The notes beneath the pieces are model-generated. The model was not told the DNA's origin and did not search any database. It saw only the letters and a list, made by a program, of their open reading frames with translations. This document shows positions 13,221-43,466 of a stretch of 64,000 nucleotides of DNA, piece after piece. The translations under genes were made by a program, and so were the position numbers. Location: NCBI GenBank assembly GCA_000091205.1, contig AP006486.2; one strand, given 5' to 3'. Position 1 is the first letter of the stretch. Each line of letters begins with the position of its first letter. The stretch comes from Cyanidioschyzon merolae. Taxonomy: Eukaryota.

Positions 13221-16067
13221 ATGTTCGGAAAGCCTCTTCCAGAGTGGCTAGCGGCAACGTACCCGCCAGAACCTGGAGCCTCGCTCTGTGACTCGAGAGC
13301 TTACTGGAGGTCTCACATTTTGAACTACTTTCAAAGTGTGGGATGCCCTTTGCAAGATTGGCATCTCGGTGACCGGCCTATCACGTCAGCTCGTTCGCTT
13401 CTCGACTGGATAGATGGAATTCGCGTAGGCCAGGATCCTCAGCACCGTGAGCGCTTGCGCTGGCGACCTGCTCTGAATACGCTGATGGAAGCTGATGTGC
13501 CAGTGTCAAGGTCTCAAGAGGAGCTACTCAGAACTGCTCTTGATCTTCTTCGCGGTGACGATCGGTACGTATTGATCCGAGGTCACTCGGACTCCCGCTA
13601 TGCTGGGCCGAACGCATCAGTTGCAAGACTTCTGGCTCCAGAATGGGTAGCGCTCACGCGTGCACTGGGCGACTGCGTCGCTCTCCGGCTGATCACCGAC
13701 TTCGTCTTGCTGGAAAGAGTTGGTCCCTCCTGTTACATACAACTGAGCGGACGGGTCGGACTAGAAAGGCTCTCTGCGAAGTCAGCGAAAGCACCCCAGA
13801 CTCATCGTGAAATCCCATGCGATATGCGCGGCGCTAGTCACAGACTGCATATCAACGCAGATCCGCATAGAACTGAATGTCCAACGAAAGCACGCATTGA
13901 AACATCCAAGGCACATGCTCTCCCGATTTCGACGAAAAGCATCGCGCTCGGCCCCTACGGCATAACGACAAGGAACCCGTATCTTGCCATGCATCCCTCA
14001 AAATCTAACGCCAAACGTTTGCTTGCGCTCGCTGCGGCAGGGCTGTGCTCACGCGAAGAGTATCATGGAGGGGTGTGTCTCCCTCTTCGCTGCTCCTCCT
14101 GTATTCGTTTCCTTGACGCTTTTCGCTGCATACTGGTGCGAGCGTGGGATATTCCTCTGAAGGGAATGCTCAACCATTACTGCCCATCGAAAGCAACCAC
14201 TGTGGACCAGTCTCAACCAGTTATGAAAAAATATGCCTCTTCACGCCGCTCTGTTTTCCATTTCCTCTTTGCGATATTCAGATCGATTGTTCCCACTTGT
14301 GTGTTTGAGTCCTTTACATTTGAAATCTGGGTACGGAAGGCGATATCCTCCTTCCTTCTGAGCAAAATATCTTCCACGCCTTACGATGTACGACTTCATG
14401 TCGCTCAGCTGATGGAAACGGTACAATTTCAGCAGCATCAGCCTATGTCTTTTGGCGACGCTGGAGTATGCCGCAACCATCCGCTGCACATTCAGCATAT
14501 TTTCAGCTTTCTTTTCAACGCCATCGTCATACACGTCTTCGATGAATGTTTTGTTCTCAGCGCAGCCGATCGCGCTGAGATGCGGAGATTGATATTACGT
14601 CGAGACTCGCTCTTCGTTTTCCGCACGCAAGCCATTGCTCACCTTGTACGCAGTGGCGACTTTGAACGCATGCGGAAGAATCTCGGTAAGCGAACTGGTC
14701 ACTGGACAAGTGTTCGTATTTTGCCGAAAGCGAACAGCTTTCGACTTGTTCAAAAAATGAGCCCTGACACACAGGGGAAGGAGACAACCCTAATACACGC
14801 TGTTTGCCTGTACGAGCGCTTGTCTCGACCTGAGGCGTTCGGCGCGAGCATTCGTTCTCTAACTGAAATGCACCAGCGTTGGGCCGCCTTCGTCCAGAGA
14901 TGGCGACGGTTTGGGCGACCGCCTCTTTTTGCACTATGCTTCGATATCCGCCAGGCTTTCGATTCTATACCTTTGAAGCGTTTTCTCTGGCGAGAGCTTT
15001 CGGATTTCTTTCACTCAGAGGCCTACGCGCTTCGAAGGTTCATTGTCACAGACAAACAATTTCGATTTCCACAACGAAAGTGGTTTGCCTGCCCTATTGC
15101 TGATGTCACTAGAGGTTACGACGCTTTTGCTCTGCAGTACTTGCAGTCAGCCCGCAGCAAAATTATTGCCGACGAGGGCGTGATTTGTTCGCTGCATACC
15201 GCCGATATCATTTCGCATTTACGTCGAATTATCGGAAGCAATCAAGTTCATTTTGGCGATCATTCTTCAGCGTTAATCCAGCGCCGGGGCATTCCCCAAG
15301 GTTTACCAATATCGAGCATCCTATGCGATTTTCACCTCGGATGCTTTGAGCGAAAATGTCTGAAGGATTTCCTTCGCGTTAATAGTACAAAGGATCCGCC
15401 TTCCTTATTGATGCGTTACGTAGATGATGTGTTTTTCGTAACGAGTGAAGTTTCCATCTTCCGTGCGTTTTGCAACAGGGTTCAGCAGTGCTCAAAAGCG
15501 CTTGGCGTGATGCCATCTCCCGGGAAGACTCGAAAATGCGTCGCAGGCGGTAGGAAACCCCGTATCGAATGGTGTGGCATGATTTTCGATCTGCAGAGTG
15601 CCCAAGTTCTACTACGGATGCCGCGGTCTATCCCATCGGAGGCACCGGACGCTGCTGTCTTTTTCTCGAAATGCAAAACCGCAAGCCATCCTCGAATCCT
15701 CCGACGGTTTATTTCCATTTTCGCCTCCCAGATGCAGTCAGTATTCCTTGATCTCTCCATTAACGGCCCTGAAACTGTGAAACGGAATATCTGCACTGCA
15801 TTACGCCTAGCCCTTAACCGCATCGGTGAGGATGATCTGAGAAGTTCGCTGCGAGAGAAACCAGCTCAACGCATCCTGTTGCGATGGCTACGTCAAACGA
15901 CCATGAATCGATGCTGCCGCTGGGAGCCGTTGTCGGAACAAACGCCACAAACGTACCGCAGTGAACTGAACCGAATCCTCTGCGAAGGATTTAGGATAAT
16001 CTTACACAAATGCATTCACAACGAAGATTGTTTTCAAGGCTGTCGTGCTGCTTCAAGCTGTGCGTGA
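13221..16067 (+). CDS. TERT: Telomerase reverse transcriptase (TERT), 948 aa.
   Basis: The RT motifs are in TERT order and spacing: motif 1/2 VRILPKANSFRLV; motif A LCFDIRQAFDSIP; ~113 aa from motif A to B' (an IFD-sized insertion); B' RRGIPQGLPISSILCDF; C LLMRYVDDVFFVTS; E KTRKCV...IEWCGMIFD. A C-terminal extension follows. Confidence 0.85.
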   Translation: MFGKPLPEWLAATYPPEPGASLCDSRAYWRSHILNYFQSVGCPLQDWHLGDRPITSARSLLDWIDGIRVGQDPQHRERLRWRPALNTLMEADVPVSRSQEELLRTALDLLRGDDRYVLIRGHSDSRYAGPNASVARLLAPEWVALTRALGDCVALRLITDFVLLERVGPSCYIQLSGRVGLERLSAKSAKAPQTHREIPCDMRGASHRLHINADPHRTECPTKARIETSKAHALPISTKSIALGPYGITTRNPYLAMHPSKSNAKRLLALAAAGLCSREEYHGGVCLPLRCSSCIRFLDAFRCILVRAWDIPLKGMLNHYCPSKATTVDQSQPVMKKYASSRRSVFHFLFAIFRSIVPTCVFESFTFEIWVRKAISSFLLSKISSTPYDVRLHVAQLMETVQFQQHQPMSFGDAGVCRNHPLHIQHIFSFLFNAIVIHVFDECFVLSAADRAEMRRLILRRDSLFVFRTQAIAHLVRSGDFERMRKNLGKRTGHWTSVRILPKANSFRLVQKMSPDTQGKETTLIHAVCLYERLSRPEAFGASIRSLTEMHQRWAAFVQRWRRFGRPPLFALCFDIRQAFDSIPLKRFLWRELSDFFHSEAYALRRFIVTDKQFRFPQRKWFACPIADVTRGYDAFALQYLQSARSKIIADEGVICSLHTADIISHLRRIIGSNQVHFGDHSSALIQRRGIPQGLPISSILCDFHLGCFERKCLKDFLRVNSTKDPPSLLMRYVDDVFFVTSEVSIFRAFCNRVQQCSKALGVMPSPGKTRKCVAGGRKPRIEWCGMIFDLQSAQVLLRMPRSIPSEAPDAAVFFSKCKTASHPRILRRFISIFASQMQSVFLDLSINGPETVKRNICTALRLALNRIGEDDLRSSLREKPAQRILLRWLRQTTMNRCCRWEPLSEQTPQTYRSELNRILCEGFRIILHKCIHNEDCFQGCRAASSCA

Positions 16068-17209
16068 ATCACTCAGTCGCTCGGAGAGTGGTCACGCGTC
16101 TAGAGTCGTGCCTCCGTACGAGAACCGACGATGCGTTTCAGCCACGCTTAGCGTGGGGTTATATGAGGATGCGTCAGGATTAGTCCAGTGAGTCTGGCGA
16201 GGCCCCAATTTCATGGGACATTCCGTTTCTCTCCAACGCGTTCCAGCGCCTTAGACCGCGCGATAGATATTCCTGTGGTTCTCTGGTTGGATCATTGATG
16301 CGTCGTTGAGCCGAGCACGATGAAACGCTTCTAGGTGACGCTTATAAACATGGCGTATCTCGAACATATATACCATTTAGCGAATCGTGCTGCGAAGAAT
16401 CGAGGCAATATGAGATGGATCTTGTGCAGGCTCACCATTCAAAGAAGAATTCAATGCAATACACATAGGGCGCCAGCGTTTTCTTTACAAATATGACAAA
16501 GGAGCTTCCAGTTCATCTCGGCATCTTATGCCTAGCCAGAGACTCGGGAAACTATTCTCCGGAAGACACATTTGCACAAGGTTTGCAGAATTGCACTGGA
16601 GACAGAGGCTCTTTCTCTCGTTTTCCTGAATACCATAATGCGGACTTGCAGGTCTGGTTCATCCGGAATAAACTCGGAAACAGGACGGATCCCAAAGTCT
16701 GTTTCTTCCGTACGAACTTGAGCATGCATTGGCAGTAAATGGGCGGAAGAACTCAACGTCAAGTGTAGCTGAGGAACGCAAGTGCGTTCAGTTCTGATAT
16801 TCTAAGCCCGCTGCATGAGACCAGATGCAGTCGGCGAAGCTCTTATTGACGGTTTCCACAAAGGCGAGAGCCGCCCCCTTTGTGATAGTGCTTCGTATAA
16901 TAGCATTTCTGACCACGGATGCACCTTACACACAGGTGCCACAAATCTGCAGTCTGGCAGCGACTACGCCGTTCTCTGAAGGCCGCTTCCACGCCCTACA
17001 ATGCTCAAGGCATTTTTCACGATAGGAATAGAAGTTAGATTGATTCAGCGTTAGAGATTGCACTGCTGCCGAGCGCACCGCACATCCCCTTGGTGCAGCA
17101 CTGGAGGCTGTGGCAGCAGCAGCTACGACACTGGCACCATACGAAGGCAGCCTTGCTTGGCGTTGCATTTGCAAGCGTCCCTTCGAGACCTGCGTCCGTT
17201 ATACTCTGA

Positions 17210-20200
17210 GCAGTGAATCCCGGAACAAGTGCATCAGCTCGCACTTTCCTTCTTGTTCCATTTGTCACAAGTACTCATCAAAAGAAATGTATATTTTAGA
17301 TCGGAGAAAGGTCCCGAAAACATTAGATTTCGTCACTGCTAGCTTCCCCGGAAAACGAGCTTGCTTCTTCCAGCCTGTTATTCGTCGGTCAGCAGGCGGA
17401 TACATCCCCGCCCTTCACGTATTGCTTATCCTGAACGTTGTGCTTCCACAACAGAACTTATCAAACCCGCTGGACGCGACGGTCGCCTCGTCAATCCGTT
17501 CCTCCCCATACGTTCTCGGTGAGATACCACCAAAGAAGTCACAGCATGCGCAGTTTCCCCATCGGTGATACAGGCGGAGAAAAATACGCCCGGATGCAAG
17601 AGCAAAACGAACATGCTTCTTCGGGAGACCGTCGCGCATTGAATGAAGCACCCCTCGTTTCGCACTGGAGCGCGAAGGCCTCGCACTCGACGGATGTTCG
17701 TCTCGATATCCTGAACCTTATGCCCGACAAATGGTAGACATGTGCACGGCGACTCGAGCAGGGTCAAACCGCTGTTCGTGCAGCAGAGACAAGAGAGCAT
17801 GATGACAATATCGGCCCTAGCGACGGTGCTATCCTGTGGTCGCCTACGTATCGCGATTCGGACAGGATTGGTCAACGCCTTAGCCTTCGTCGAGGAACGC
17901 TTCGCGGCTTCTCCTCCACCATGTCATTCTATGCTGTTCTTCGTAGACTTCGCTTTCCGTGTCTTAGACGCTGTCAAAGAGTACGCAGGTGGAACTAGCG
18001 CTGAGCCGCCCTTCACGTCAGACTATTCTTCCTGGTTCAATGCGTCGAATGCATCTTGTCTGTTATCAGACACCATCTCTGTGCTCACTCACCTATAGAC
18101 GAGTCATTCGCATCCGTAAAATTATTCTTCAACGAGTACGTCTTCGAGAACAGGTCCTGTACTTTCACTGGGCCTGAATTGCTGCGTTCCTCCTGCGCTC
18201 TTTCTGCTGAGGGAGCGCAGAGGCGCGCTCCGTGCCGCGAGCGTACTCGCCACGGAGAAGTCTGTAATGAGGCACTTGAGCAATCGTGGTTGCTTGCGTA
18301 CACAGAAAAGCACGAATGTCAGCGCCGTCGTCCGCACCGTGTGCCTGAGTCCCAGGAAAAAAGGATTTGGATTATAGCGACAACATCCACACTACTCCGC
18401 CAGCGAGACGACGGGGCGACGGAGAAAGACAGGAAAATGCCGGACAAACAGGAAGTGAATGATCCTCCCAGAAAGAGGACGAAGAAGAACCAGAAGGGAA
18501 AGCGGCCGGGGCAGACATATCAGCGAGAAACAGTTGCCGAAGCCTCTCTACGGAAACACATCAATGGGGGCAAGCCTCCAAGATGTGGGGTTCAGGACAC
18601 CATTCGGGATTTCGAGGCTTCTCACTCGAGGAAGTCTCCACGGGCTTCTCTCGCCGAGGCGCCCGTCGTCAAACACATGTTCGCGTGAGTGCTGGACGCA
18701 GAGCTCCCCGCGCTCCAGGCTCCTCTGGATTTTGCCAAGTAAATCTTCGACCGGCAACGCAGCTGATGCTCGCGACGGTGGATGCAGCACGGCCTGATCG
18801 AAGAATCAGGGACTTGTATGAATGCCTCTGAGCGTACGATGACTCGTCGGCGCGCCGCGTCGGCAACAGGAACGTCTACAACGCAGGTGCCACAGATGAA
18901 ATGAACCACCAAAAATTCAAGTTCCTTGGCGGGTCATTGTTGAGCACCTCACCGGGCATACCCAGTCAGCGTTGTACGCTTGTGCACTCACACCAGTGGT
19001 CCGGAGCGTGAGCACTGATGGAAGGGGTTCATAGGGGTGCCCATGGAGGCAAGTGACGAGCTGGAGGCTACGGAGGAGCGCGAGATGGCAGCGAGTTTCG
19101 AGAAGATGCCGCAGCAAGAGCGGTGGGCGCTTCAGATCGTTCAAGTTTATGGTGCTGCTGAGGGCTATTGGACCGCCGAACGTCGTTCCTGAGTATGTTT
19201 GAAGCGCGACGCCTGCCATGCTTGCATGTTGCGCTACTTCGGTTTCCTGAACAAAACCTCCACTGTAGAGCACCCTCCCTGGCCGAGTCCGAACTCCCTG
19301 GCCTACTCAAGCGCTTCTTGGACGCGGTCCATGCACGCGACTTCTAGGGCCACGATATTACTGTACTGTACTGCACTGCAGTGTACTGGACTGCACTGGA
19401 CTGCACTGCACTGTACTGCACTGTACTGTACTGCTCTGTACTGCACTGCTCTGTACTGCACTGCACTGTACTGCTCTGTACTCCTCTGTACTGCACTGCA
19501 GTGTACTGGACTGGACTGGACTGCACTGCACTGGACTGCACTGTGCTGTGCTGTGCTGTGCTGTGCTGTGCTGTGCTGTGCTGTGCTGTGCTGTGCTGTG
19601 CTGCACTTGACCGCACTGCCCCGTCCTATCCTATACTGTACTACCTGCTCAATGAGCTACAACTGGTCTTTGCGAGCACATATGAAGCACTCGAGCATCT
19701 TTACGAAGAGCATTGGCGGGGGCCGTTCAAGGTTGTTTCTTGACGCAGAGTCCAAGGAAGGAACTGGACAGGTGCAGTGCAGACCGACGGAATATCCCTC
19801 TGGTTGCACTCTGTTCAGTCGATACCCGAGTCCCGCAAAGAGGCTCGTTTCAATCGCTCATCGTCGATGAAATCTAAAATTTCGCGGCGGGTGTAGGTCC
19901 CGGGTTGCAGGACGTCATAGCTGTCGCCGTGCTCCCAGGTCAGGACGACGAAGCCAAGGGCCTGAACTGAAAGCAGCTGGAGAAGCTAAATGTTTCCAGA
20001 GCTCCGTCTTATTGAGGGTCGCGCATGACAGGTGTCAGAAGGCATACCGACAGATGGAATGGACGCGGCAGGACCCAGATAGACGCCCTGAATACCGTGC
20101 GGAGCAGAGGTGGTCCTTCGAACGCTTCAGCCGAAGATTGCGTGAGCGTCTGAATGGCTCGTGCGGAAGGCGTCTCTGGCAGGCGTACCCGAGGCCGCGC

Positions 20201-20935
20201 TGAGGTCGCCAACTTTTTCGGTTGCACGGAGACAAGAAACGTCCATTGACCGTCCACTTCCATATATTGGAGAAGGAAATGACCGACAAGTCGCTTCGTT
20301 CGAAGGCAGCGTAGGGTTCTTGATGTGTTGCGGCGTGCAGTGGCTCCACTCTTGCTCGTCGAATGCGAGCGCACGACAAGTGCAGGAATCGACTCTTCAG
20401 GAATCCCATCGGTGAGTTCGGGACGACAAACACTCCTTGCGGACACGGGTGTGCGCTGAAACCGATTGAGAAGAAGCGAGTGAAGCGCAGACAGCTGTAT
20501 GAGATGGTGTACGGCAGGGTGACCAAACCTCAGATACCGGTGCATTCGAAGGCGAGCGGCTTTGTATAGTGCGATTCTACCAGCAAGCTTGTGCGCAGGC
20601 GCTTTCTGCAGCGAGACTTGAACGTCCCGCTCAACGTTCGGAAATGTCACGTGCCTCCGGAGCGCTCAGCGGCTTTGCATCGAGCGGGTTGTCGGGGAAG
20701 AATCGTTCGCTTCTCAGCGTAGGCATTGTGCTGGAGCGCTGAGGACTCCCGATGCAGAACAAATCAGTAGCCGGGATCGAGGATCGTGGATTTCCGCCTG
20801 GAGCAAGACACTGGTATGGAACGGTGTATCAGTTCGGAATAGGCTGGAGTGCCGCTTATCTAGATCGGGAAAGACTTTCGTAGGCAACTGATGAGTGATT
20901 ATGGTGTAGGATTACTCAATAAGATGGGCAAAGTT
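17210..20935. repeat. Copy A of a ~3.6-3.7 kb direct segmental repeat. It is ~98% identical to 29773-33355 and has no recognisable coding content.
   Basis: The ORF-track translations are near-identical between copies: 17426-17875 vs 29991-30440, 18056-18688 vs 30621-31253, 20009-20650 vs 32434-33075. Nucleotide alignment starts at ~17210/29773 and ends at ~20935/33355. Confidence 0.9.
19358..19612. repeat. Pentanucleotide minisatellite: degenerate (ACTGC/ACTGT/ACTGG)n followed by (CTGTG)14.
   Basis: I read this directly from the sequence. The ORFs over it (Cys/Thr/Leu/Ala-rich, 19199-19870 and 19344-19616) are translation artefacts of the repeat. Confidence 0.9.
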
Positions 20936-29772: not shown

Positions 29773-32700
29773 GAGCAGTGAATCCTGGAACAAGTGCATC
29801 AGCTCGCACTTTCCTTCTTGTTCCTTTTGTCACAAGTACTCATCAAAAGAAATGTATATTTTAGATCGGAGAAAGGTCCCGAAAACATCAGATTTCGTCA
29901 CTGCTAGCTTCCCCGGAAAACGAGCTTGCTTCTTCAAGTCTGTTATTCGTCGGCCAGCAGGCGGATACATCCCCGCCCTTCACGTATTGCTTATCCTGAA
30001 CGTTGTGCTCCCACAACAGAACTTATCAAACCCGCTGGACGCGACGGTCGCCTCGTCAATCCATTCCTCCCCATACGTTCTCGGTGAGATACCACCAAAG
30101 AAGTCACAGCATGCGCAGCTTCCCCATCGGTGATACAGGCGGAGAAAAATACGCCCGGATGCAAGAGCAAAACGAACATGCTTCTTCGGGAGACCGTCGC
30201 GCATTGCATGAAGCACCCCTCGTTTCGCACTGGAGCGCGAAGGCCTCGCACTCGACGGATGTTCGTCTCGATATCCTGAACCTTATGCCCGACAAATGGT
30301 AGACATGTGCACGGCGACTCGAGCAGGGTCAAACCGCTGTTCGTGCAGCAGAGACAAGAGAGCATGATGACAATATCGGCCCTAGCGACGGTGCTATCCT
30401 GTGGTCGCCTACGTATCGCGATTCGGACAGGATTGGTCAACGCCTTAGCCTTCGTCGAGGAACGCTTCGCGGCTTCTCCTCCACCATGTCATTCTATGCT
30501 GTTCTTCGTAGACTTCGCTTTCCGTGTCTTAGACGCTGTCAAAGAGTACGCAGGTGGAACTAGCGCTGAGCCGCCCTTCACGTCAGACTATTCTTCCTGG
30601 TTCAATGCGTCGAATGCATCTTGTCTGTTATCAGACACCATCTCTGTGCTCACTCACCTATAGACGAGTCATTCGCATCCGTAAAATTATTCTTCAACGA
30701 GTACGTCTTCGAGAACAGGTCCTGTACTTTCACTGGGCCTGAATTGCTGCGTTCCTCCTGCGCTCTTTCTGCTGGGGGAGCGCAGAGGCGCGCTCCGTGC
30801 CGCGAGCGTACTCGCCACGGAGAAGTCTGTAATGAGGCACTTGAGCAATCGTGGTTGCTTGCGTACACAGAAAAGCACGAATGTCAGCGCCGTCGTCCGC
30901 ACCGTGTGCCTGAGTCCCAGGAAAAAAGGATTTGGATTATAGCGACAACATCCACACTACTCCGCCAGCGAGACGACGGGGCGACGGAGAAAGACAGGAA
31001 AATGCCGGACAAACGGGAAGTGAATGATCCTCCCAGAAAGAGGACCAAGAAGAACCAGAAGGGAAAGCGGCCGGGGCAGACATATCAGCGAGAAACAGTT
31101 GCCGAAGCCTCTCTACGGAAACACATCAATGGGGGCAAGCCTCCAAGATGTGGGGTTCAGGACACCATTCGGGATTTCGAGGCTTCTCACTCGATGAAGT
31201 CTCGACGGGCTTCTCTCGCCGAGGCGCCCGTCGTCAAACACATGTTCGCGTGAGTGCTGGACACAGAGCTCCCCGCGCTCCAGGCTCCTCTGGATTTTGC
31301 CAAGTAAATCTTCGACCGGCAACGCAGCTGATGCTCGCGACGGTGGATGCAGCACGGCCTGATCGAAGAATCAGGGACTTGTATGAATGCCTCTGAGCGT
31401 ACGATGACTCGTCGGCGCGCCGCGTCGGCAACAGGAACGTCTACAACGCAGGTGCCACAGATGAAATGAACCACCAAAAATTCAAGTTCCTTGGCGGGTC
31501 ATTGTTGAGCACCTCACCGGGCATACCCAGTCAGCGTTGTACGCTTGTGCACTCACACCAGTGGTCCGGAGCGTGAGCACTGATGGAAGGGGTTCATAGG
31601 GGTGCCCATGGAGGCAAGTGACGAGCTGGAGGCTACGGAGGAGCGCGAGATGGCAGCGAGTTTCGAGAAGATGCCGCAGCAAGAGCGGTGGGCGCTTCAG
31701 ATCGTTCAAGCTTATGGTGCTGCTGAGGGCTATTGGACCGCCGAACGTCGTTCCTGAGTATGTTTGAAGCGCGACGCCTGCCATGCTTGCATGTTGCGCT
31801 ACTTCGGTTTCCTGAACAAAACCTCCACTGTAGAGCACCCTCCCTGGCCGAGTCCGAACTACCTGGCCTACTCAAGCGCTTCTTGGACGCGGTCCAAGCA
31901 CGCGACTTCGAGGCCCACGATATTACTGTACTGCACTGCACTGCAGTGTACTGGACTGGACTGGACTGCACTGCACTGGACTGCACTGTGCTGTGCTGTG
32001 CTGTGCTGTGCTGTGCTGTGCTGTGCTGCACTTGACCGCACTGCCCCGTCCTATCCTATACTGTACTACCTGCTCAATGAGCTACAACTGGTCTTTGCGA
32101 GCACGTATGAAGCACTCGAGCATCTTTACGAAGAGCATTGGCGGGGGCCGTTCAAGGTTGTTTCTTGACGCAGAGTCCAAGGAAGGAACTGGACAGGTGC
32201 AGTGGAGACCGACGGAGTATCCCTCTGGTTGCACTCTGCTCAGTCGATACCCGAGTCCCGCAAAGAGGCTCGTTTCAATCGCTCATCGTCGCTGAAATCT
32301 AAAATTTCGCGGCGGGTGCAGGTCCCGGGTTGCAGGACGTCATAGCTGTCGCCGTGCTCCCAGGTCAGGACGACGAAGCCAAGGGCCTGAACTGAAAGCA
32401 GCTGGAGAAGCTAAATGTTTCCAGAGCTCCGTCTTATTGAGGGTCGCGCATGACAGGTGTCAGAAGGCATACCGACAGATGGAATGGACGCGGCAGGACC
32501 CAGATAGACGCCCTGAATACCGTGCGGAGCAGAGGTGGTCCTTCGAACGCTTCAGCCGAAGATTGCGTGAGCGTCTGAATGGCTCGTGCGGAAGGCGTCT
32601 CTGGCAGGCGTACCCGAGGCCGCGCTGAGGTCGCCAACTTTTTCGGTTGCACGGAGACAAGAAACGTCCATTGACCATCCACTTCTATAAATTGGAGAAG

Positions 32701-33355
32701 GAAATGACCGACAAGTCGCTTCGTTCGAAGGCAGCGTAGGGTTCTTGATGTGTTGCGGCGTGCAGTGGCTCCACTCTTGCTCGTCGAATGCGAGCGCACG
32801 ACAAGTGCAGGAATCGACTCTTCAGGAATCCCATCGGTGAGTGCGGGACGACAAACACTCCTTGCGGACACGGGTGTGCGCTGAAACTGATTGAGAAGAA
32901 GCGAGTGAAGCGCAGACGGCTGTATAAGATGGTGTACGGCAGGGTGACCAAACCTCAGATACCGGTGCATTCGAAGGCGAGCGGCTTTGTATAGTGCGAT
33001 TCTACCAGCAAGCTTGTGCGCAGGCGCTTTCTGCATCGAGACTTGAACGTCCCGCTCAACGTTCGGAAATGTCACGTGCCTCCGGAGCGCTCAGCGGCTT
33101 TGCATCGTGCGGGTTGTCGGGGAAGAATCGTTCGCTTCTCAGCGTAGGCATTGTGCTGGAGCGCTGAGGACTCCCGATGCAGAACAAATCAGTAGCCGGG
33201 ATCGAGGATCGTGGATTTCCGCCTGGAGCAAGACACTGGTATGGAACGGTGTATCAGTTCGGAATAGGCTGGAGTGCCGCTTGTCTACATCGGGAAAGAC
33301 TTTCGTAGGCAACTGATGAGTGATTATGGTGTAGGATTACCCAATAAAATGGGCA
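29773..33355. repeat. Copy B of the direct repeat, in the same orientation as copy A. It is ~140 bp shorter because its internal minisatellite is contracted.
   Basis: Same evidence as copy A. It begins ~360 bp after the GPD stop codon. Confidence 0.9.
31924..32026. repeat. The same minisatellite in repeat copy B, contracted: the ACTGN block is ~60 bp instead of ~180 bp, and (CTGTG)8 instead of 14.
   Basis: I read this directly from the sequence. Confidence 0.9.
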
Positions 33356-34507
33356 GAAGAGCACCATAATATCGGTTCCTGAAATTAACCGATACGGCGA
33401 TACTTGCGAATACTGGGATCGTTTCATGAAGCTCATGAGCTAAAATGTATCGAGACAGGACTCGAGCGCTTCCGGCAGGATAACAGAACCCCATGTAAGG
33501 TAGTGTAGTGTTTTTCTTCCGTTCCGGCCCGTGAGATGCTTGAAGACGCCTTGTTGAGTGGTACACAATGTTTCTCAGTGGCGTCCGATCACACTTTGCG
33601 CATCGATTGTCGTTCTAACTGGCTGCTCCAGACTCCAGATATTTCGAGGATCTTGCACGAACAACGGCGCCTAGATTGCTTGCTTCTTGACAAGTATGGT
33701 TCCTTGTTTATGCGCCCCGGGTGAACTTAGATCTTGCTCGGTCTCAGCGCGTATCTACGAGACTGTGATTGCCGCAAAACACGTCAATTAGATCATGACC
33801 AGATATCTATTCCGGCTTATTCTTCGCTGTGCAGCTCGTACCTTGACAATATCTTGACAGCGTCCCTATTAGCGTTCTATATGGGAATCCAGCAACCTGT
33901 ACGCCCATACATGATAGTCTGAAAGTTTCCGCTAGTCACTGCTCCATGCGGTGCAGTTCATACGAGAATGCTCAGAATATTTTTGCCAGATTTTTCGCTG
34001 AAGCTCCCAATAGCCAGCGGAACTTGCTGTCTATAAAGCCGGAAAACGTGTTCGGCCCCTGGGGGAGGCAACTTGTAACCGAGGCGCGGCGCTTCGCCTC
34101 AAGAGTCTGTGGCCTGCGCCGCCTCCTTCGGGCCAAGACTGGAAACACCGGAAAATAACTAAAAGTCAGTTGCGTCGCCAGCGAATGCTCGACAAAGCAT
34201 CGCCAGTACAAGTCAGAGCAGGTGGACGGGTACGCTAGGCATGCAAGACACTGCCCAACCGAGCCGAATTCCACAAAGGAAAAGAATATCCGTCCCGATT
34301 CTATACGAATTCCGCAACAGCTGGAAAAGCGCGCGAGGTAGCATCCGCAGCCCGAGGTCTTTTCGAACCGACGATCTACATGCTCAGTGGAGCGAAAAGG
34401 CATCGCTTCCATAGAGAATGTAAATACACTCACTCTCAGACGCCCTCAGCCGTTTTCGACAGGCCCACTTTCATCGGCTTCAGCTTCGTCCTGCACACTT
34501 CGAGCTT

Positions 34508-35477
34508 GAGGGGCTGCCCCATGGAGCTGGATCGCGTCAGATCCTCGAGTCTCTTCTCCGGCACCGCACATCTCCTGATATTGATGGCAGCACTCAAGTC
34601 TCGATTCCCGAACTCTATAGGCTCATTGCCACTAATGGAACGCATCACTTCACGGATTCCTAAGCTTCTTGCTCTCAGTGCCAACCGATGCTCCGTGAGC
34701 GCCCCGTGCTTTTCTATCGCCGAAGCGCTCCGCGGCCTGCTCGCCATCACGACCTTCTGAAGTTTAAACCCAAGCTCATCCACTGGATTTTCATTTCTTG
34801 AAATGAACGCACTTCTTCTTGCACTTAGGTGGGACCTTCCCGATGATAAAGAAGAACTTACGGAAGAAAGACGGGATGCATATCAGCGTTACCGTGTACT
34901 GAACATTTCAGCAATGCGCCCAGTGGAGCGATCATTACGTTTCTCGACGGGAAGCACTCCATGGATGGGGTCGAACCACGGAGAGTACGGAGGAGTGAAA
35001 ACCACTTCTACCCCGACAGAATTAGCAAAAGCTGGAACGCGACGTGAATGATGAAGTGCAACTTTATGCAATAGAGGGGTATTATCAGACGTGGGGAGAA
35101 GGCTTCAATAGTTGGACATACTGAATGCTGTTGTATGAACCCTCTCTACGAGCGAAACCAACGGCGCCAAACGAATCCTCTTGAACTAGAACAGATGAAG
35201 ATGTCCTCGTTCCCTACCAGCTCGATCGTACATACAGCGGGCTTGCTCTGAGCCAATACGCATATTCGTGCCGACTGTTTCATCTGAAGCAAGTCACATC
35301 GACCGAAAAAACATACCGACATCTCTGTTCTTCACAACCATGGCGACTTTCGAGGAACTCTGTAGTTGTGATGTTGGTGGAAGATGGCTGTGCATGAAAT
35401 TTGACTGCTTTTTTTGCGAATGTATCCCAGTGTATTCAGTAGCATACGAACAAGCTGTTGGGAAACAGAGACGCCCG
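34508..35477. repeat. Left arm of a ~1 kb inverted repeat. Its partner is 41185-42160. Similarity continues beyond both ends at lower identity.
   Basis: ORF translations from one arm reappear on the opposite strand of the other: 34803-35051(+) equals 41614-41862(-), 35268-35480(+) equals 41176-41397(-), and 34436-34783(-) equals 41882-42418(+). I confirmed the reverse-complement match of the edges by eye. Confidence 0.85.
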
Positions 35478-36854
35478 TAACTGCTATTATCTTCTCCTTT
35501 GTTTTGCGTGAGATGATCGAGGAGTCCTTTTTGTACCATTCACCGCAAGTGGGTCGTGATAATGTCGGGTTTTGGCACCTTGCGCGTATACGTGTTTCTT
35601 TCAGTGTTCCTGAATTATCAGAGGAATGTGGCATGACTGACCTGAAGGAGTTTGTCATCCGCTTGCACTGTTCTGTAAAGACTATATCCTACAGGCAATT
35701 ATTCTACAATTTATAAGGTGCACTGCATCATGATTTCGATCTCTTGCTAAAGACTGCACCGGCTGTGGAACGAAACTGAGTTGTAAGACTATAATGGATG
35801 GTGAATGGTGGATCCTGAGGTCATGGTGCAGAATGATGAACACCCTCACGGACGCGAATAGTATTCGCGCTCAATCGAAGATAACTCTGTTCGTGTACAC
35901 GATCCGTCAATCATCATAAAGAAACTATCCGGTTGCTACATCCTATGGACCATTGAACAATAGCAGTGACACTTACCATCGAATCGGTGCATTTTTACCG
36001 AAAAGAACAAAAACTAACCTCTTACTAGCAACTCTACAGCAGCTTCTTTCTTCTCTACGCTGAGCGATAGAAGGGGGAGGAGTTTTCCGTAGTTTCCGAC
36101 GTTTACGTTCTGGGCGGAAGGTCCGGCGGGCCGGACAAGTCTGCAACGCAAGAACGTCATGCTCCTCCCTGTGGCGGGTGCTGCGGTTCGACCTTTAGCA
36201 GCTTGTCCGCAGCCCAGTTTATTCGGGCACTGGGCGTGGCCCTGGTCCCGGTGATCCCCTAGCTATCGCTTCGCATTGCCGCATGCAGTAGGTCTGTCTG
36301 CGCAGTTTGCAGGCTTCCGGAAGGATGATGTTATCCGATCCCGTGTCGGATGAACCACGCCTCGAGTCGACATGCCGATTGGTATGGCAACGCGGATCTG
36401 TCTCCGCGCTTCATCCGCACCAGCGGTATAGACGCTTTTGCGGGTGCTTACAACAGGCTCGGGGCACGGTAGAATATACGAAACGATCAGTATATCCGAG
36501 AGCAAATATGGGTAATGGAACTGGGACGTGTTGCGCAGCATGATGAACGCTTTCTCGATTACCAACGTCGATCACGCAATCTGGGATCCATGTACAACGT
36601 AAACGCTTCGTCGAAGAAAAAACATATAGAACTGAGCAGCGCGCTGGACCCGCCGCAGTTCGCAGCGACCCAGGTCACCAGATCCATACACTTGCCACAG
36701 GCAATAGCGTTCTGCACGCAATGAGCGCCTCACAGAAAAGGGTCACTTTAGTCGACAATTTTGAGGAGCTCTTTTTCGTTCGCGGAAGGAACGCCAAGGC
36801 GTAGAGAGGGCCGTTAGTCACCTGTGGGAAGCTATTTGTGGCTGTGTATTCTAG

Positions 36855-37550
36855 ATGGCAGCACTGGAGTCTGTGCCGTCTGGCGACGCGGAGCCGCGTC
36901 AAACGCTGCCACGGTCCCCGAGAGGTCGGCGCTCCTTCACAGAAGCACAACGAAAGGCTGCTTGGGAGCGAGCAAAGCCCGTTCCGGGGCGCGATCCCGA
37001 GCGATGGCGATATGATGTGTACGGAAATCCAGTTTTGCGGCCCTTGCACGGCTGTTTAGGCTGCTTTTGCTATGAGTTTGACCACCGAGTACCCTACTCG
37101 CTCGGAGGCGCGACAAGTCTTGACAATTGTGACATTCTTCAAACGCGCATAAACCGTCTCAAATCGAACGCTCTAGAAGGAGTGAATATATCCAGGGAAC
37201 AAATCCGCCAGTATGCATGTGAAGACGTGTCAAATGTCATTGACATGGACGCCATAGAGTTCGCGGTTTACGGCGACGTGCGCCGCGAGGGGCTTCACTG
37301 CCGTGCATACAGCTTGTTCGAGAAGGTCGCTTCCGAAATGCTGGTTTCCACCGGGCGAGTATCCAGGTTTGAAAGCGGATCTCCAGCAGTAACGGAACAT
37401 TCACCCATGAAGATATCTCGTCAAAGCAACATCCCATCATGCACCGAAGCGTTGAACCGTACTCCACAGCAGCAAGGCATGAAACCAGTACCGAGTCATC
37501 CTGAAATACCGATTCCACCCGCTTGGCTCTTTCTTCCATCCTTCTCGTGA
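36855..37550 (+). CDS. HNH-nuclease-domain protein (231 aa).
   Basis: The stretch ...RDPERWRYDVYGNPVL...CLGCFCYEFDHRVPYSLGGATSLDNCDILQTRINRLKSN has the HNH signature (Cys pair, DH, ...N...L....N..K). The C-terminal half is Ser/Pro-rich and low-complexity. Confidence 0.5.
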   Translation: MAALESVPSGDAEPRQTLPRSPRGRRSFTEAQRKAAWERAKPVPGRDPERWRYDVYGNPVLRPLHGCLGCFCYEFDHRVPYSLGGATSLDNCDILQTRINRLKSNALEGVNISREQIRQYACEDVSNVIDMDAIEFAVYGDVRREGLHCRAYSLFEKVASEMLVSTGRVSRFESGSPAVTEHSPMKISRQSNIPSCTEALNRTPQQQGMKPVPSHPEIPIPPAWLFLPSFS

Positions 37551-38224: not shown

Positions 38225-39094
38225 TTATCTACTAGACGAGCGTGAACCGGCCGTGAGTTCAAGGGCGCGCTCTACGCTCCGCCATTGCTCTGCGCTTAGT
38301 GCCTCGTCGGGCTCAGCGAATTGCAGCCTCGATAGCCAGAGTTTCGCTGATTCTAATGAAAAGCCATACTTGTTCTGCAGAATATCCAAGCCTTCACCTG
38401 TGCAAAACTTTCTCTGTAAGGGCTCAATCTCACGCTTTAGTTCCGATACGGCGGCTCTTACATGTGCATCATCTCGACAAACAAGCACAAAAGCCGGCCA
38501 TGAAGGCGCATATTCGCCGACAAGGCGAATCAGACCCTGTCGTGTAGCTGCACACTCCTTTGTGAAACACGTTTCCCAGAGGAACATGTCGATGTCACCG
38601 GCAACTGCGGCCTGTATCAGACCATCGAAACTTCCGCATTCGAAGCTCTTTAGTATATCATTTTGAATACCTGTAGAGATCCAGCCACGATCACTAGCGA
38701 AAACAGAAAGAAGTAGATGGCTTCCGGAGCCCCTTCGGGAGAATCCCGCTCGGATGCTTTCTCCGCGAAGCACGGCCGCATCCAAGCTATTCAGATCAGT
38801 CCAGTCGGTTTTCTTGGAACTCACTGCGACTCCCCAGGCTAGAGGAGAAGCAACGTATACAGAGTGCACAGCGAGCCCAGAGGCAGCTGCTTTTGTGCGT
38901 GCCACAGCGCTCTCGGTAAGTGTAACCGCTACGTCTAACTCGCACTTCGCCAACATTTCGAGCGCGGCACCGCTGCCACCTGCAACCCCCAGAAACTCAA
39001 CCTGTAACTTCGTGGACGGGAGAGCGCCCTCCTGGGCTTGCATAAAAATCTCGTTGAAAGGCTCGGGCACGCCGCCAACTCGTAGTAAAGTCAT
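38225..39094 (-). CDS. Periplasmic-binding-protein-type-II-fold protein, NMT1/THI5-SsuA-like domain. The assignment is tentative.
   Basis: The N-terminal LLRVGGVPEPFNEIF...LQVEFLGVAGGSGAALEMLAKCELDVAVTLTES resembles the VEF...G...LE.L..GE.D core of the SsuA/NMT1 family. I have no stronger signature. Confidence 0.3.
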   Translation of the reverse strand: MTLLRVGGVPEPFNEIFMQAQEGALPSTKLQVEFLGVAGGSGAALEMLAKCELDVAVTLTESAVARTKAAASGLAVHSVYVASPLAWGVAVSSKKTDWTDLNSLDAAVLRGESIRAGFSRRGSGSHLLLSVFASDRGWISTGIQNDILKSFECGSFDGLIQAAVAGDIDMFLWETCFTKECAATRQGLIRLVGEYAPSWPAFVLVCRDDAHVRAAVSELKREIEPLQRKFCTGEGLDILQNKYGFSLESAKLWLSRLQFAEPDEALSAEQWRSVERALELTAGSRSSSR

Positions 39095-39896: not shown

Positions 39897-40691
39897 TCAC
39901 ATGAGATGCTGGTATCGCCACAATTTGATGCCCAGAAAAGTAGACGCAATATACGCCACCGTCCACCCTATACTCTCAATGATGGTCATCGCTCGCCAAT
40001 ACGTCCGCAAATTTTTGGCATTATTCTGAATCCATCCGAGACGTGTCCAACCGTTGAATGGAAACGGGAAGCTGACGATGCTCATCACAATGCAGAGCGC
40101 CGTGATGATACCGAGTATGCAGTACGATGCCTTATAATAAGTCGAGTCATCTTCCGCGCATGCTCTGAAAACTGTGAAATAACCGGCAGACAAGACAAAA
40201 AACCCCAAAAATACGTTAAGCAAAGAGACCACCCACTGGGCCCACGGATTTGAGGCTGCACCACGGGCTGCGAGAACAGTCCATGTTACCCAGTTCAAAA
40301 CCAACAACACCATAGCGTACCAAAAGAACCAACTGTACAACGCTGGGTTTGCTCGGACTAGAGGCACCAGCTCCGACAAATCTATGTGCACAACGTGGAA
40401 TATAGCCGGCCAGTTCGGTTTGTCCCACTCGATCCCTTTTCCAGTTACGGTGTTCGCGTTTCGAATAGGTACCGGGGGTGGCACCCGGCTGGCCCCTTCT
40501 GTGGCGTCCTCACCCATTTGAAACTCTTCCGGAAACCCAGCACCATGACGTTCTAGGGTGATCTTGCCACCAACTTTTTGGATCCAGCTCATGCCTCTCT
40601 GTAAAGACCCGTTGTGCTTGTAGGAAGTCCAAAAAAAACTCAGCCAAGCGAAGTGGATAAAAGTACAGCGGCGCGGCTCGCGCGCTTCCAT
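39897..40691 (-). CDS. Secretory carrier membrane protein (SCAMP)-like protein with four transmembrane segments.
   Basis: A KPNWPAIF motif (compare the SCAMP NWPP motif) is followed by four hydrophobic segments spaced as in SCAMPs, with an amphipathic segment after TM2. Confidence 0.5.
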   Translation of the reverse strand: MEAREPRRCTFIHFAWLSFFWTSYKHNGSLQRGMSWIQKVGGKITLERHGAGFPEEFQMGEDATEGASRVPPPVPIRNANTVTGKGIEWDKPNWPAIFHVVHIDLSELVPLVRANPALYSWFFWYAMVLLVLNWVTWTVLAARGAASNPWAQWVVSLLNVFLGFFVLSAGYFTVFRACAEDDSTYYKASYCILGIITALCIVMSIVSFPFPFNGWTRLGWIQNNAKNLRTYWRAMTIIESIGWTVAYIASTFLGIKLWRYQHLM

Positions 40692-41184
40692 TCTGAACGC
40701 ACAATCGTAGAGCCGTTACGCGTTCATCGATAGTGTGGGATATCGATGAGGGGATAGCGGGATCCCCCATATGCACAATGATGATGGATGTCCAGGTAAG
40801 AAGCCACCATCCGACCTGGGCCCGCTCAGTTCCAGTCTCCGCTAACAATACCTCCGTTCAGAGATGGTACAGTCTTTCAACTCGAATGTGTTTTAGCCTC
40901 GCTGCGGTGCATAGCTTGAGATCGAATTCAGTATGCAGTGTAACCAATAGATCGGGGACGAATTGACTGCAGCTATGCATTCTTCAATGACCGGCGCACG
41001 GAGGACTGCATTCCTCCTCCTTCAGTTCAGACATACTACAGTACACAGATGGTGTAGGAGCACTGACAGAAAGAAGTAAGTGCGCTCCGCGCCAAAAACC
41101 GATATTCTCAAAGACTGGTTGAGGTCAATTGTAGAAAACGACCGATTGGTCATCTTGCGGAAAGCAAAAGCGACGTTAGAATCC

Positions 41185-42160
41185 ATCCGGGCGTCTCTGT
41201 TTCCCAACAGCTTGTTCGTATGCTACTGAATACACTGGGATACATTCGCAAAAAAAGCAGTCAAATTTCATGCACAGCCATCTTCCACCAACATCACAAC
41301 TACAGAGTTCCTCGAAAGTCGCCATGGTTGTGAAGAACAGAGATGTCGGTATGTTTTTTCCGTCGATGTGACTTGCTTCAGATGAAACAGTCGGCACGAA
41401 TATGCGTATTGGCTCAGAGCAAACCCGCTGTACGTACGATCGAGCTGGTAGGGAACGAGGACATCTTCATCTGTTCTAGTTCAAGAGGATTCGTTTGGCG
41501 CCGTTGGTTTCGCTCGTAGAGAGGGTCCATACAACGGCATTCAGTATGTCCAACTATTGAAGCCTTCTCCCCACGTCTGATAACGCCCCTCTATTGCATA
41601 AAGTTGCACTTCATCATTCACGTCGCGTTCCAGCTTTTGCTAATTCTGTCGGGGTAGAAGTGGTTTTCACTCCTCCGTACTCTCCGTGGTTCGACCCCAT
41701 CCATGGAGTGCTTCCCGTCGAGAAACGTAATGATCGCTCCACTGGGCGCATTGCTGAAATGTTCAGTACACGGTAACGCTGATATGCATCCCGTCTTTCT
41801 TCCGTAAGTTCTTCTTTATCATCGGGAAGGTCCCACCTAAGTGCAAGAAGAAGTGCGTTCATTTCAAGAAATGAAAATCCAGTGGATGAGCTTGGGTTTA
41901 AACTTCAGAAGGTCGTGATGGCGAGCAGGCAGCGGAGCGCTTCGGCGATAGAAAAGCACGGGGCGCTCACGGAGCATCGGTTGGCACTGAGAGCAAGAAG
42001 CTTAGGAATCCGTGAAGTGATGCGTTCCATTAGTGGCAATGAGCCTATAGAGTTCGGGAATCGAGACTTGAGTGCTGCCATCAATATCAGGAGATGTGCG
42101 GTGCCGGAGAAGAGACTCGAGGATCTGACGCGATCCAGCTCCATGGGGCAGCCTCTCAGG
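41185..42160. repeat. Right arm of the inverted repeat.
   Basis: As for the left arm. Confidence 0.85.
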
Positions 42161-43466
42161 ATCGAAGCGTTCCTGCGTAAACTGGAAGCGATAGAATGCA
42201 ACCGGCCAAAAAGGCTAGCTGGCGTCCGTGCGTCGGTATTAGTTGCCCCGATATGGTCGTGGGGCATTTTTGGTTCCATTGACCGTATAATGGACAGGAG
42301 CGGAGGTTCTCGAACGGATCGATTCTCCGATTTGTCAGCGGAGCGCCCGTGTAGAGGTGCATACGGTGGTGCGAAAAGTGTTCACTGTAGGGTCGGCCCA
42401 GACGAGTCGTTGGAGTGAACTTGCCTCTCTTCTGATGATGACTATCGGTCTGGAGCTCTAGGCGCGCTAACGCTTTCGAAGGGTTTCAGCGCTGGCTTCC
42501 GTAGAGCTAGGCAGCACTCATGTTTTGCGGGGCATCCGATTTGCTTCATAGAATCTGGCTAATGAGTAACTGGGAACGGGAGAGGCTAGTACTAAGCGTT
42601 TCTCGTCGGTTCGAGTCCCCCTGAAATTAGCCACACTTATATCGAATTACGGGCTTCCACACAGACGGATAGCATGCTTCACCAAATGGACTGAACTGCA
42701 AGTTGCCGAAAGCGAGCTGCACCTCAAGGCCATGTTCTTCATGAGGTACGGGAATCAGGAGCTGTGTCGCGTTGCTGCAGAGCAGATCCACCTATAGTAG
42801 ACAGCTCGGTTCGAGAGCGAGTCCAACCGCTACGCAGAGCTCGCTGTATTCTATGATGCACCTTGAGGCGATCGGTTGCACCCCGAACGATGAGACTTCT
42901 CAGCAGTTTACCGTGTATCATCCGAGACGACCACAAAATGGATGTGGAGCAGCGTTCAGACTGAGGCTTAGTTGCGCCTCTCAAGCAAGTGACGATACCA
43001 GTAATGGAGGAGAAGTTGTCGGTGGCCCTGCTCAGAGCAACGAGCCTATTCATGCATGTTCGTTGAGGTTCGTGCAGGTCCGTCGAACGCGCTCAAAGCG
43101 GTCGTTGCATCATCCGTTTGACCTGGCTTCGTATGCTCGCGTGCATGTCTTATTTGATGCCAACCAAACAGTTGCTTGTACTCTTGCGCTGGTTTCGGCG
43201 CTAGTGCTCGACCAGTTTTGTATTCCCTGCGTGGTCGAATAGCGCCTGAACACACGCACTAATCTTGATAGGCACAATGAAACCTCCGCTAACTTCCCGA
43301 ATAAGGGCTGTGGCGAGTTTCTCTTGTTTCCACAGCGGGTCTGGAGGACTACTTGTTGTTGACCGAGGCAGAGGCTTCAGTCAAACGTCAGCTGCGTTTA
43401 GACTTTAGTGCAGCTTCTTTTGTAGGACCCAAGTCAATTTTCGATACCCCTCTACGGGCAGAAGCG

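Follow-up and report, generated by a model that had tools for sequence, protein, structure and literature searches.

A stand-alone HNH gene between inverted repeats in Cyanidioschyzon merolae is probably a vertically inherited member of an old eukaryotic family

Introduction

The window analysed here is a 64-kb stretch of DNA (64,000 nucleotides) from the red alga Cyanidioschyzon merolae. Within it, a small stand-alone gene with an HNH nuclease domain lies between the two arms of a 1.25-kb inverted repeat. HNH domains are common in mobile elements, and a stand-alone eukaryotic HNH gene enclosed by inverted repeats looks selfish at first sight. An earlier note, made from the sequence alone, had considered a selfish, mobile or horizontally acquired origin worth testing. 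Is this gene a homing endonuclease or restriction-like element, a recent horizontal acquisition, or a gene of the host that happens to lie beside a repeat? We consider it about 85% probable that it is the C. merolae orthologue, present in one copy, of an old eukaryotic family of small stand-alone HNH (His-Me finger) proteins that includes rice WSL9, and that it is a vertically inherited host gene encoding a putative nuclease, to which the repeat is unrelated.

Results

An intron-less gene with the canonical HNH spacing

The open reading frame runs uninterrupted at exactly 36855..37550 on the plus strand, stop codon included; the gene is intron-less and single-copy in C. merolae. An exact-sequence look-up showed its product to be identical to BAM79187.1 / XP_005535473.1 / UniProt M1VAM0 of C. 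merolae 10D, whose gene is carried on a 513,455-bp contig. NCBI names this protein "hypothetical protein, conserved" and UniProt "HNH nuclease domain-containing protein". The gene is already annotated publicly, and its eukaryotic family is known, though uncharacterised in mechanism. It can be divided as follows:

36855..37550, plus strand: complete coding sequence of the HNH gene, 231 amino acids plus stop, ATG start (open reading frame list, exact-sequence look-up, orthologues)
36927..37349, plus strand: conserved family core, residues 25-165 (profile matches over about 20-170, invariant columns, pN/pS, pLDDT)
37053..37169, plus strand: beta-beta-alpha-metal (HNH) catalytic core, residues 67-105 (C67, C70, C72, D76-H77, N91-C92, N100, K103)
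37350..37547, plus strand: Ser/Pro-rich tail, residues 166-231 (composition, dN/dS of 0.38-0.67, pLDDT, alignment of three orthologues)

The family core consists of an N-terminal helix with a W37...R46-x-P48-x-R50-W51-R52-x-D54 motif, the HNH core, and a C-terminal module, D132...E135...Y139-G140...C149-R150. The HNH core reads GC67LGC70FC72-YEF-D76H77-RVPYSLGGATSLD-N91C92-DILQTRI-N100RLK103. The Cys pair and DH...N...N core described in the earlier note are present as C67/C70, D76-H77, N91 and N100. Their spacing, C67-x2-C70 and then D76-H77-x13-N91-x8-N100-x2-K103, is that of the Cas9 HNH domain, and all residues for one-metal-ion phosphodiester hydrolysis are retained in it. DH-x13-N-x8-N is found a single time when the window is translated in six frames, whereas residue shuffles predict 0.14 occurrences, and the full pattern C..C...DH-x13-N-x8-N..K was found in none of 200 shuffles.

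The last 66 residues contain 17% Pro and 15% Ser, and together Ser, Pro, Thr and Gln make up 44% of the tail versus 16% of the core. This composition bears out the Ser/Pro-rich, low-complexity tail described earlier, and the tail is probably disordered. Two islands in it are kept within the Cyanidiales in the alignment of three orthologues, P194-S195-C196 and P221-P222-x-W224-L-F-L-P228, so that a Cyanidiales-specific PSC motif and PPxWLFLP C-terminus are embedded in an otherwise fast-evolving segment.

HNH assignment at the level of the family

Taken on its own, the protein matches PF01844 at E=0.04 (14.5 bits, where the gathering score is 21.4) and HNH_4 at E=0.069, both below threshold, and a scan of NCBIfam gave no match. 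The Pfam scan revealed no second domain, and the gene has no intron, intein or homing DNA-binding module, which argues against a selfish element. Because the single-sequence Pfam match stays below threshold, HNH membership rests on evidence from the family as a whole.

We built a profile from the three cyanidialean orthologues and used it in an exhaustive search of 1.84 billion cluster representatives. At E<=1e-3 it returned 534 representatives, of which 221 also passed E<=1e-10 and 25 passed E<=1e-30; homology spans residues ~20-170. An earlier word-indexed homologue search had returned three cyanidialean clusters only and badly under-reported the family. When 62 aligned relatives were compared with Pfam individually, 58 matched PF01844 (best E=2e-6), 47 HNH_5 and 43 HNH_4; relatives matching HNH models fit the query profile at E values of 1e-36 to 1e-70. 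The Pfam check proposed in the earlier note thus gives a sub-threshold match for the protein alone and clear matches for its relatives, and the assignment as an HNH-nuclease-domain gene is supported by these family-level matches together with the canonical D-H...N...N spacing.

Alignments of 25 and of 62 diverged members show R46, R50, W51, R52, D54, D76, H77, P80, G85, N91, C92, N100 and K103 to be invariant. The family also has a set of seven cysteines (CW, GCxGCxC, NC, xC, CR), six of which are kept in C. merolae as C67, C70, C72, C92, C122 and C149. The seventh, the 'CW' cysteine, is present in 90% or more of the other members, but the three cyanidialean genera have Ala, Val and Ala in its place (A36 in C. 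merolae).

The AlphaFold model from the 62-sequence alignment reaches a mean pLDDT of 76.7, with values of 79-96 across most of residues 30-150, 72 at 101-110 and ~50-70 in the tail; a version built on three sequences gave a pLDDT of 36. The model places a strand at 73-77, a second strand at 92-96 and a helix at 97-105, which together form a beta-beta-alpha-metal element. Together with the family-level evidence, this predicted fold leads us to conclude that the HNH core is real. Sequence matches in the PDB were all weak and confined to the HNH domains of Cas9, ZRANB3 and McrA, and a Foldseek search of the model against the PDB returned nothing significant. The other ~100 conserved residues are without a close solved relative.

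Relatives are found in eukaryotes

Named relatives come from land plants, the streptophytes Chlorokybus, Closterium and Mesotaenium, the aphelid Amoeboaphelidium, the jakobid Andalucia godoyi and the euglenid Petalomonas, and the family is widespread but patchy in eukaryotes. The 25 closest relatives, examined in full, are all eukaryote-type, and every one named by a source is eukaryotic. No recognisably prokaryotic sequence was seen among the top 150 relatives of the profile search. The HNH protein has no match in PHROGs or PADLOC, and a scan of 185,579 prokaryotic genomes with two peptide patterns confirmed no relative. A phage database gave one weak match, a 112-aa open reading frame on the phage-like contig MT835934 (34% identity over residues 35-105, E=2e-4). 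The nearest relatives examined in full thus fall on the eukaryotic side of the comparison that the earlier note proposed (bacterial or phage versus eukaryotic), with one weak match in the phage and prokaryote searches.

Structural comparison with viral proteins gave a single significant match, the 82-aa BFVD entry A0A2H4UTT3 of Bodo saltans virus (E=1.5e-4, target TM-score 0.77). Bodo saltans virus is a giant virus of a kinetoplastid, a eukaryote, and this entry may be a captured fragment of the eukaryotic HNH family.

Among the plant sequences, many entries are first-exon fragments ending in ...YSKG, which implies a conserved intron. In several plant paralogues (P0017, P0160, P0162, and also P0015 and P0021), the HNH core is preceded by a fused HCF136-like N-terminus that has a twin-arginine signal. 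PF14870 is found in three of these fusions, and the named ones come from Lamiales (Primulina, Penstemon). Such proteins may represent a chimeric gene or a fusion of gene models.

Orthologues, neighbourhood and selection within the Cyanidiales

Orthologues are present in both other cyanidialean genera found: KAK4533431 of Cyanidiococcus yangmingshanensis (66% identity) and KAK4534992 of Cyanidium caldarium (59% identity). Two neighbours in the C. merolae window are of particular use for comparison:

38225..39094, minus strand: PBP2_Ca3427-like gene (Pfam), convergent with the HNH gene
39897..40691, minus strand: SCAMP gene (Pfam), also a neighbour of the HNH gene in Cyanidium caldarium

On the Cyanidiococcus contig (L008) the HNH gene is likewise convergent with a PBP2-like gene. 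An open reading frame upstream of it (L008 3-347) was considered and rejected as probably spurious; it is without homologue or domain. On the Cyanidium contig (L007), the gene table and tblastx place the DHHC, photolyase, FAE1, EPL1, SCAMP and HNH genes all within ~10 kb, the same gene set as at 36.8-58.8 kb of the window. Relative to the window, FAE1 and EPL1 have traded places, SCAMP points the other way, and the DHHC/photolyase pair is found at the other end of the cluster, where it adjoins FAE1 instead of lying beyond it. The content of the neighbourhood is kept while order and some orientations are scrambled, a sign that small rearrangements between cyanidialean genera are frequent.

For the core (residues 25-165), comparison of C. 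merolae with Cyanidiococcus yields a pN of 0.106 and a pS of 0.74 (saturated), giving a dN/dS of ~0.035; against Cyanidium, the core dN/dS is 0.11. In each of six metagenomic contigs from C. merolae-like populations in nature, the 696 positions of the open reading frame show 1-5 differences from the window. The downstream spacer of the same six contigs has 13-15 differences per 674 positions in five of them and 5/674 in the sixth.

The HNH gene has a GC content of 0.545, a GC3 of 0.534 and a leave-one-out CAI of 0.762. Neighbouring genes span 0.50-0.64 for GC3 and 0.755-0.842 for CAI, and the HNH gene falls inside both ranges; the foreign codon usage or GC3 that an immigrant gene might have is not seen. 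The RSCU correlation of the HNH gene with its neighbours is 0.32, compared with 0.375 for the PBP2-like neighbour and 0.565 for an out-of-frame control; we set this measure aside because it is too noisy for a gene of 231 codons. Overall, the HNH gene is inherited vertically within the Cyanidiales, is under strong purifying selection and has a host-like composition.

The inverted repeat and the surrounding window

The repeat reported earlier is real, and its arms lie on both sides of the HNH gene:

34495..35749: left arm, non-coding, inner edge 1.1 kb upstream of the HNH ATG
40912..42170: right arm, inner edge ~220 bp upstream of the SCAMP start codon

Aligned as 34495-35749 versus 42170-40912, the arms are 91% identical overall. 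They comprise a sharp-edged core of ~980 bp that is ~99% identical and an inner extension that is ~75% identical, a difference that suggests gene conversion. No convincing open reading frame was found in the arms. Between them lie four genes, namely HNH, PBP2-like, a 140-aa open reading frame and SCAMP, and no transposase. In an ENA contig and in a scan of a metagenome collection, a 27-mer from the arm occurred only in its two local contexts. Around the Cyanidium orthologue, no inverted repeat of >=40 nt was detected within 10 kb on either side. As a sign of mobility the association with the repeat therefore fails: host genes are enclosed, the repeat was seen in two local contexts only and the Cyanidium orthologue does without it. 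The most plausible reading is that a piece of intergenic DNA was recently duplicated locally in inverted orientation, possibly with gene conversion between the copies, and without a functional tie to the HNH gene.

The eukaryotic nuclear context given in the earlier note is borne out by the exact C. merolae match and by neighbours such as SCAMP, EPL1, DHHC, FAE1 and photolyase. In addition to HNH, the window contains DUF1517, glyoxalase, DUF1350, glycerol-3-phosphate dehydrogenase, HD-domain, PBP2_Ca3427-like and SCAMP genes, together with EPL1, a FAE1-type condensing enzyme, a DHHC palmitoyltransferase, a photolyase and a START-like gene, and is ordinary nuclear DNA. Scanning it for tRNAs and Rfam families gave no match.

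The inverted repeat borders a rearranged, repeat-rich region in the left half of the window. One feature there is a direct duplication of 3.7 kb (17208-20930 versus 29773-33355), 97-98% identical, whose copies are 12.5 kb apart; it holds tandem arrays of 10 and 15 nt (19299-19662 and 31889-32092) as well as open reading frames of 210-223 aa without Pfam match. At 13221-16067 on the plus strand, a 948-aa open reading frame contains a reverse-transcriptase domain (RVT_1, E=2.8e-11) and is presumably a retroelement.

Discussion

Relationship to WSL9 and its plant relatives

Full-text search found one genetic study of the HNH family, on rice WSL9 (Os03g0169800; PMC7354284). It found no mechanistic follow-up on WSL9, and nothing relevant on At2g23840 or on a Cyanidioschyzon HNH endonuclease. 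WSL9 is needed for chloroplast development in rice, and the wsl9 mutant, a Cys128Phe substitution, has temperature-sensitive white-striped or albino seedlings in which the rpl2 intron is spliced defectively, rpoB editing is raised and plastid rRNA is reduced (PMC7354284). This phenotype points to organelle gene expression.

The primers published for the WSL9 coding sequence translate to MVGRKP... and ...GCRIQ* (PMC7354284). These primer-encoded ends are the termini of Oryza members of the family, and WSL9 is therefore a member as well. In the profile search, the Oryza proteins scored E ~1e-55 (P0183) and ~1e-37 (P0224), and the C. merolae protein is 46% identical to the former over 119 residues (E=1e-37). 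The O. meridionalis cysteines lie at 73, 104, 107, 109 and 129, positions from which WSL9 Cys128 is most probably the 'ENC' cysteine. The residue mutated in wsl9 thus most likely corresponds to the invariant C92 of the C. merolae protein. To our knowledge, C. merolae plastid genes contain no introns, and for this reason the rpl2-splicing phenotype is not directly transferable to the alga.

WSL9-type plant proteins and the algal protein have in common F..x..W...GRDPERWR.D..GN.V, GC.GC.C, DH..PYS.GG....NC..LQ..NR.K and the D.D..E...YG..R module. They differ at both ends. The WSL9 type has an N-terminal extension of 60-100 residues, whereas the algal protein has ~24 residues before the domain, some of them acidic. 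The WSL9 type stops just past the conserved Cys-Arg (CRIQ), whereas the algal protein adds a helix and its 66-residue tail. Furthermore, the algal protein, unlike the WSL9 type, lacks the 'CW' cysteine. The Arabidopsis protein At3g47490 appears in PMC13533914 as a plastid 'HNH endonuclease' with CRIQ at its end, and its name and C-terminus give every indication that it is of the WSL9 type.

In an alignment with P0031, P0183 and P0172, the C-terminal CRIQ or CKIQ of WSL9-type proteins ('CaaX-like') falls on C149-R150, which is conserved throughout the family and internal in longer members. From this position, the cysteine looks structural and not an obvious prenylation site as discussed in PMC13533914.

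A second paralogue group of plants and streptophytes (Rhynchospora P0159, Chlorokybus P0010, Closterium P0012) provides the best overall matches, at 45% identity over 138 residues and E=1e-40. Its members share the G146..C149-R150 segment and the following helix, and many have a C-terminal LP.C or C.LP resembling the algal PSC. The group lacks the cyanidialean PPxWLFLP C-terminus and is wholly uncharacterised.

Comparison with other HNH systems

Cas9-type HNH domains (HNH_4; for example GeoCas9 HNH, PDB 8f43/7mpz) give a gap-free alignment over D-H-x13-N-x8-N-x2-K. However, this match is limited to a core of ~35 residues (E of 0.17-1.1). The algal protein is a stand-alone domain of ~140 residues that has further cysteines and, at both termini, elements of its own, and it has no RuvC or REC context. 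Human ZRANB3 HNH, bacterial Gme-HNH and McrA show no detectable homology to it past the core and differ in architecture; in McrA and Gme the zinc site is a canonical CxxC...CxxC.

HNH proteins of ~110 aa from prokaryotes or phages, represented by the MT835934 open reading frame, share W.KA..V.G.D...WR.D..G..I ... DH..P...GG....N...LQ..N..KSD with the algal protein. This extended motif could be taken to favour a mobile origin. In contrast to the algal protein, these proteins lack all the conserved cysteines and the C-terminal module, and they match phage HNH PHROGs.

A proposed mechanism

Judging from the retained residues, the protein may act as a divalent-metal-dependent nuclease or nickase on cellular nucleic acid. 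D76 and N100 would serve as metal ligands and H77 as the general base, with N91 as the structural Asn that braces the hairpin. The conserved cysteines would probably form one or two Cys-ligated zinc sites bracing the ββα-Me core, with C67, C70, C72 and C92, and possibly C122, C149 and C196, as candidate ligands. The N-terminal W/R-rich motif and the C-terminal helical module, judging from their conservation, would contact the substrate.

Alternative explanations

The protein might instead have an HNH fold without nuclease activity, acting as a nucleic-acid-binding or adaptor protein, for example in organellar RNA splicing or ribosome biogenesis, and using the site for binding only. In line with this, recombinant WSL9 expressed in E. 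coli had no detectable endonuclease activity, and the wsl9 mutant shows altered splicing and editing, not DNA damage (PMC7354284). However, the former is a single negative in vitro assay, which is weak evidence, and the WSL9 authors themselves note that the splicing defect may be secondary to plastid ribosome deficiency (PMC7354284). Moreover, D76, H77, N91, N100 and K103 have stayed invariant over very deep splits among eukaryotes, for which it is difficult to account if there is no catalysis. We therefore regard a binding-only role as unlikely, though it deserves serious consideration.

A second alternative concerns the repeat. The 5.2-kb segment between the arms could be invertible and flip-flop, switching the flanks of HNH and SCAMP, with the HNH protein as a passenger or conceivably as the nuclease that starts the exchange. 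The contrast between arm cores and inner extensions suggests ongoing gene conversion, and the arms lie on the 5' sides of both outermost genes. Two metagenome contigs (L002 and L010) stop exactly at the inner core edges (35477 and 41188), but assemblers normally break contigs at repeats. The sole contig that crosses an arm (L001) is in the reference orientation, no alternative junction was seen, and the HNH family is conserved in species without this repeat. Taken together, a flip-flop of this kind is very improbable.

A selfish or mobile gene, or a recent horizontal acquisition on an inverted-repeat cassette, has in its favour the flanking arms and the duplication and reverse-transcriptase gene nearby, but is extremely improbable for a single-copy gene under purifying selection with eukaryote-type relatives, host-like codons, orthologues in a conserved neighbourhood in other genera, no repeat at the Cyanidium locus, and SCAMP and two other genes enclosed with it. 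Thus, the origin proposed in the earlier note is not supported and largely contradicted by these observations, while its HNH assignment stands.

Implications for the family

We return to the reading of the gene as a conserved host member of the WSL9 family. Catalytic residues are invariant, WSL9 showed no activity in one in vitro assay and members occur in non-photosynthetic eukaryotes, which suggests that the function is not specific to plastids. The occurrence in non-photosynthetic eukaryotes, the missing N-terminal extension in the alga and its plastid genes without introns, as far as we know, point to a broader ancestral role in nucleic-acid processing or repair. Tentatively, and well short of an even chance, we hypothesise that the family is an ancient pan-eukaryotic nuclease in nucleic-acid metabolism, for example in organellar RNA/DNA processing or as a repair nickase, of which the wsl9 chloroplast phenotype would be a lineage-specific readout.

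For this locus, a false lead is removed, and what looked selfish is a conserved, housekeeping-type host gene. An unstudied red-algal protein is now tied to WSL9, the sole genetically characterised member of its family. C. merolae offers efficient homologous-recombination genetics. If the family is indeed a pan-eukaryotic nuclease, the C. merolae gene, intron-less and present in a single copy, would offer the simplest system for finding its substrate.
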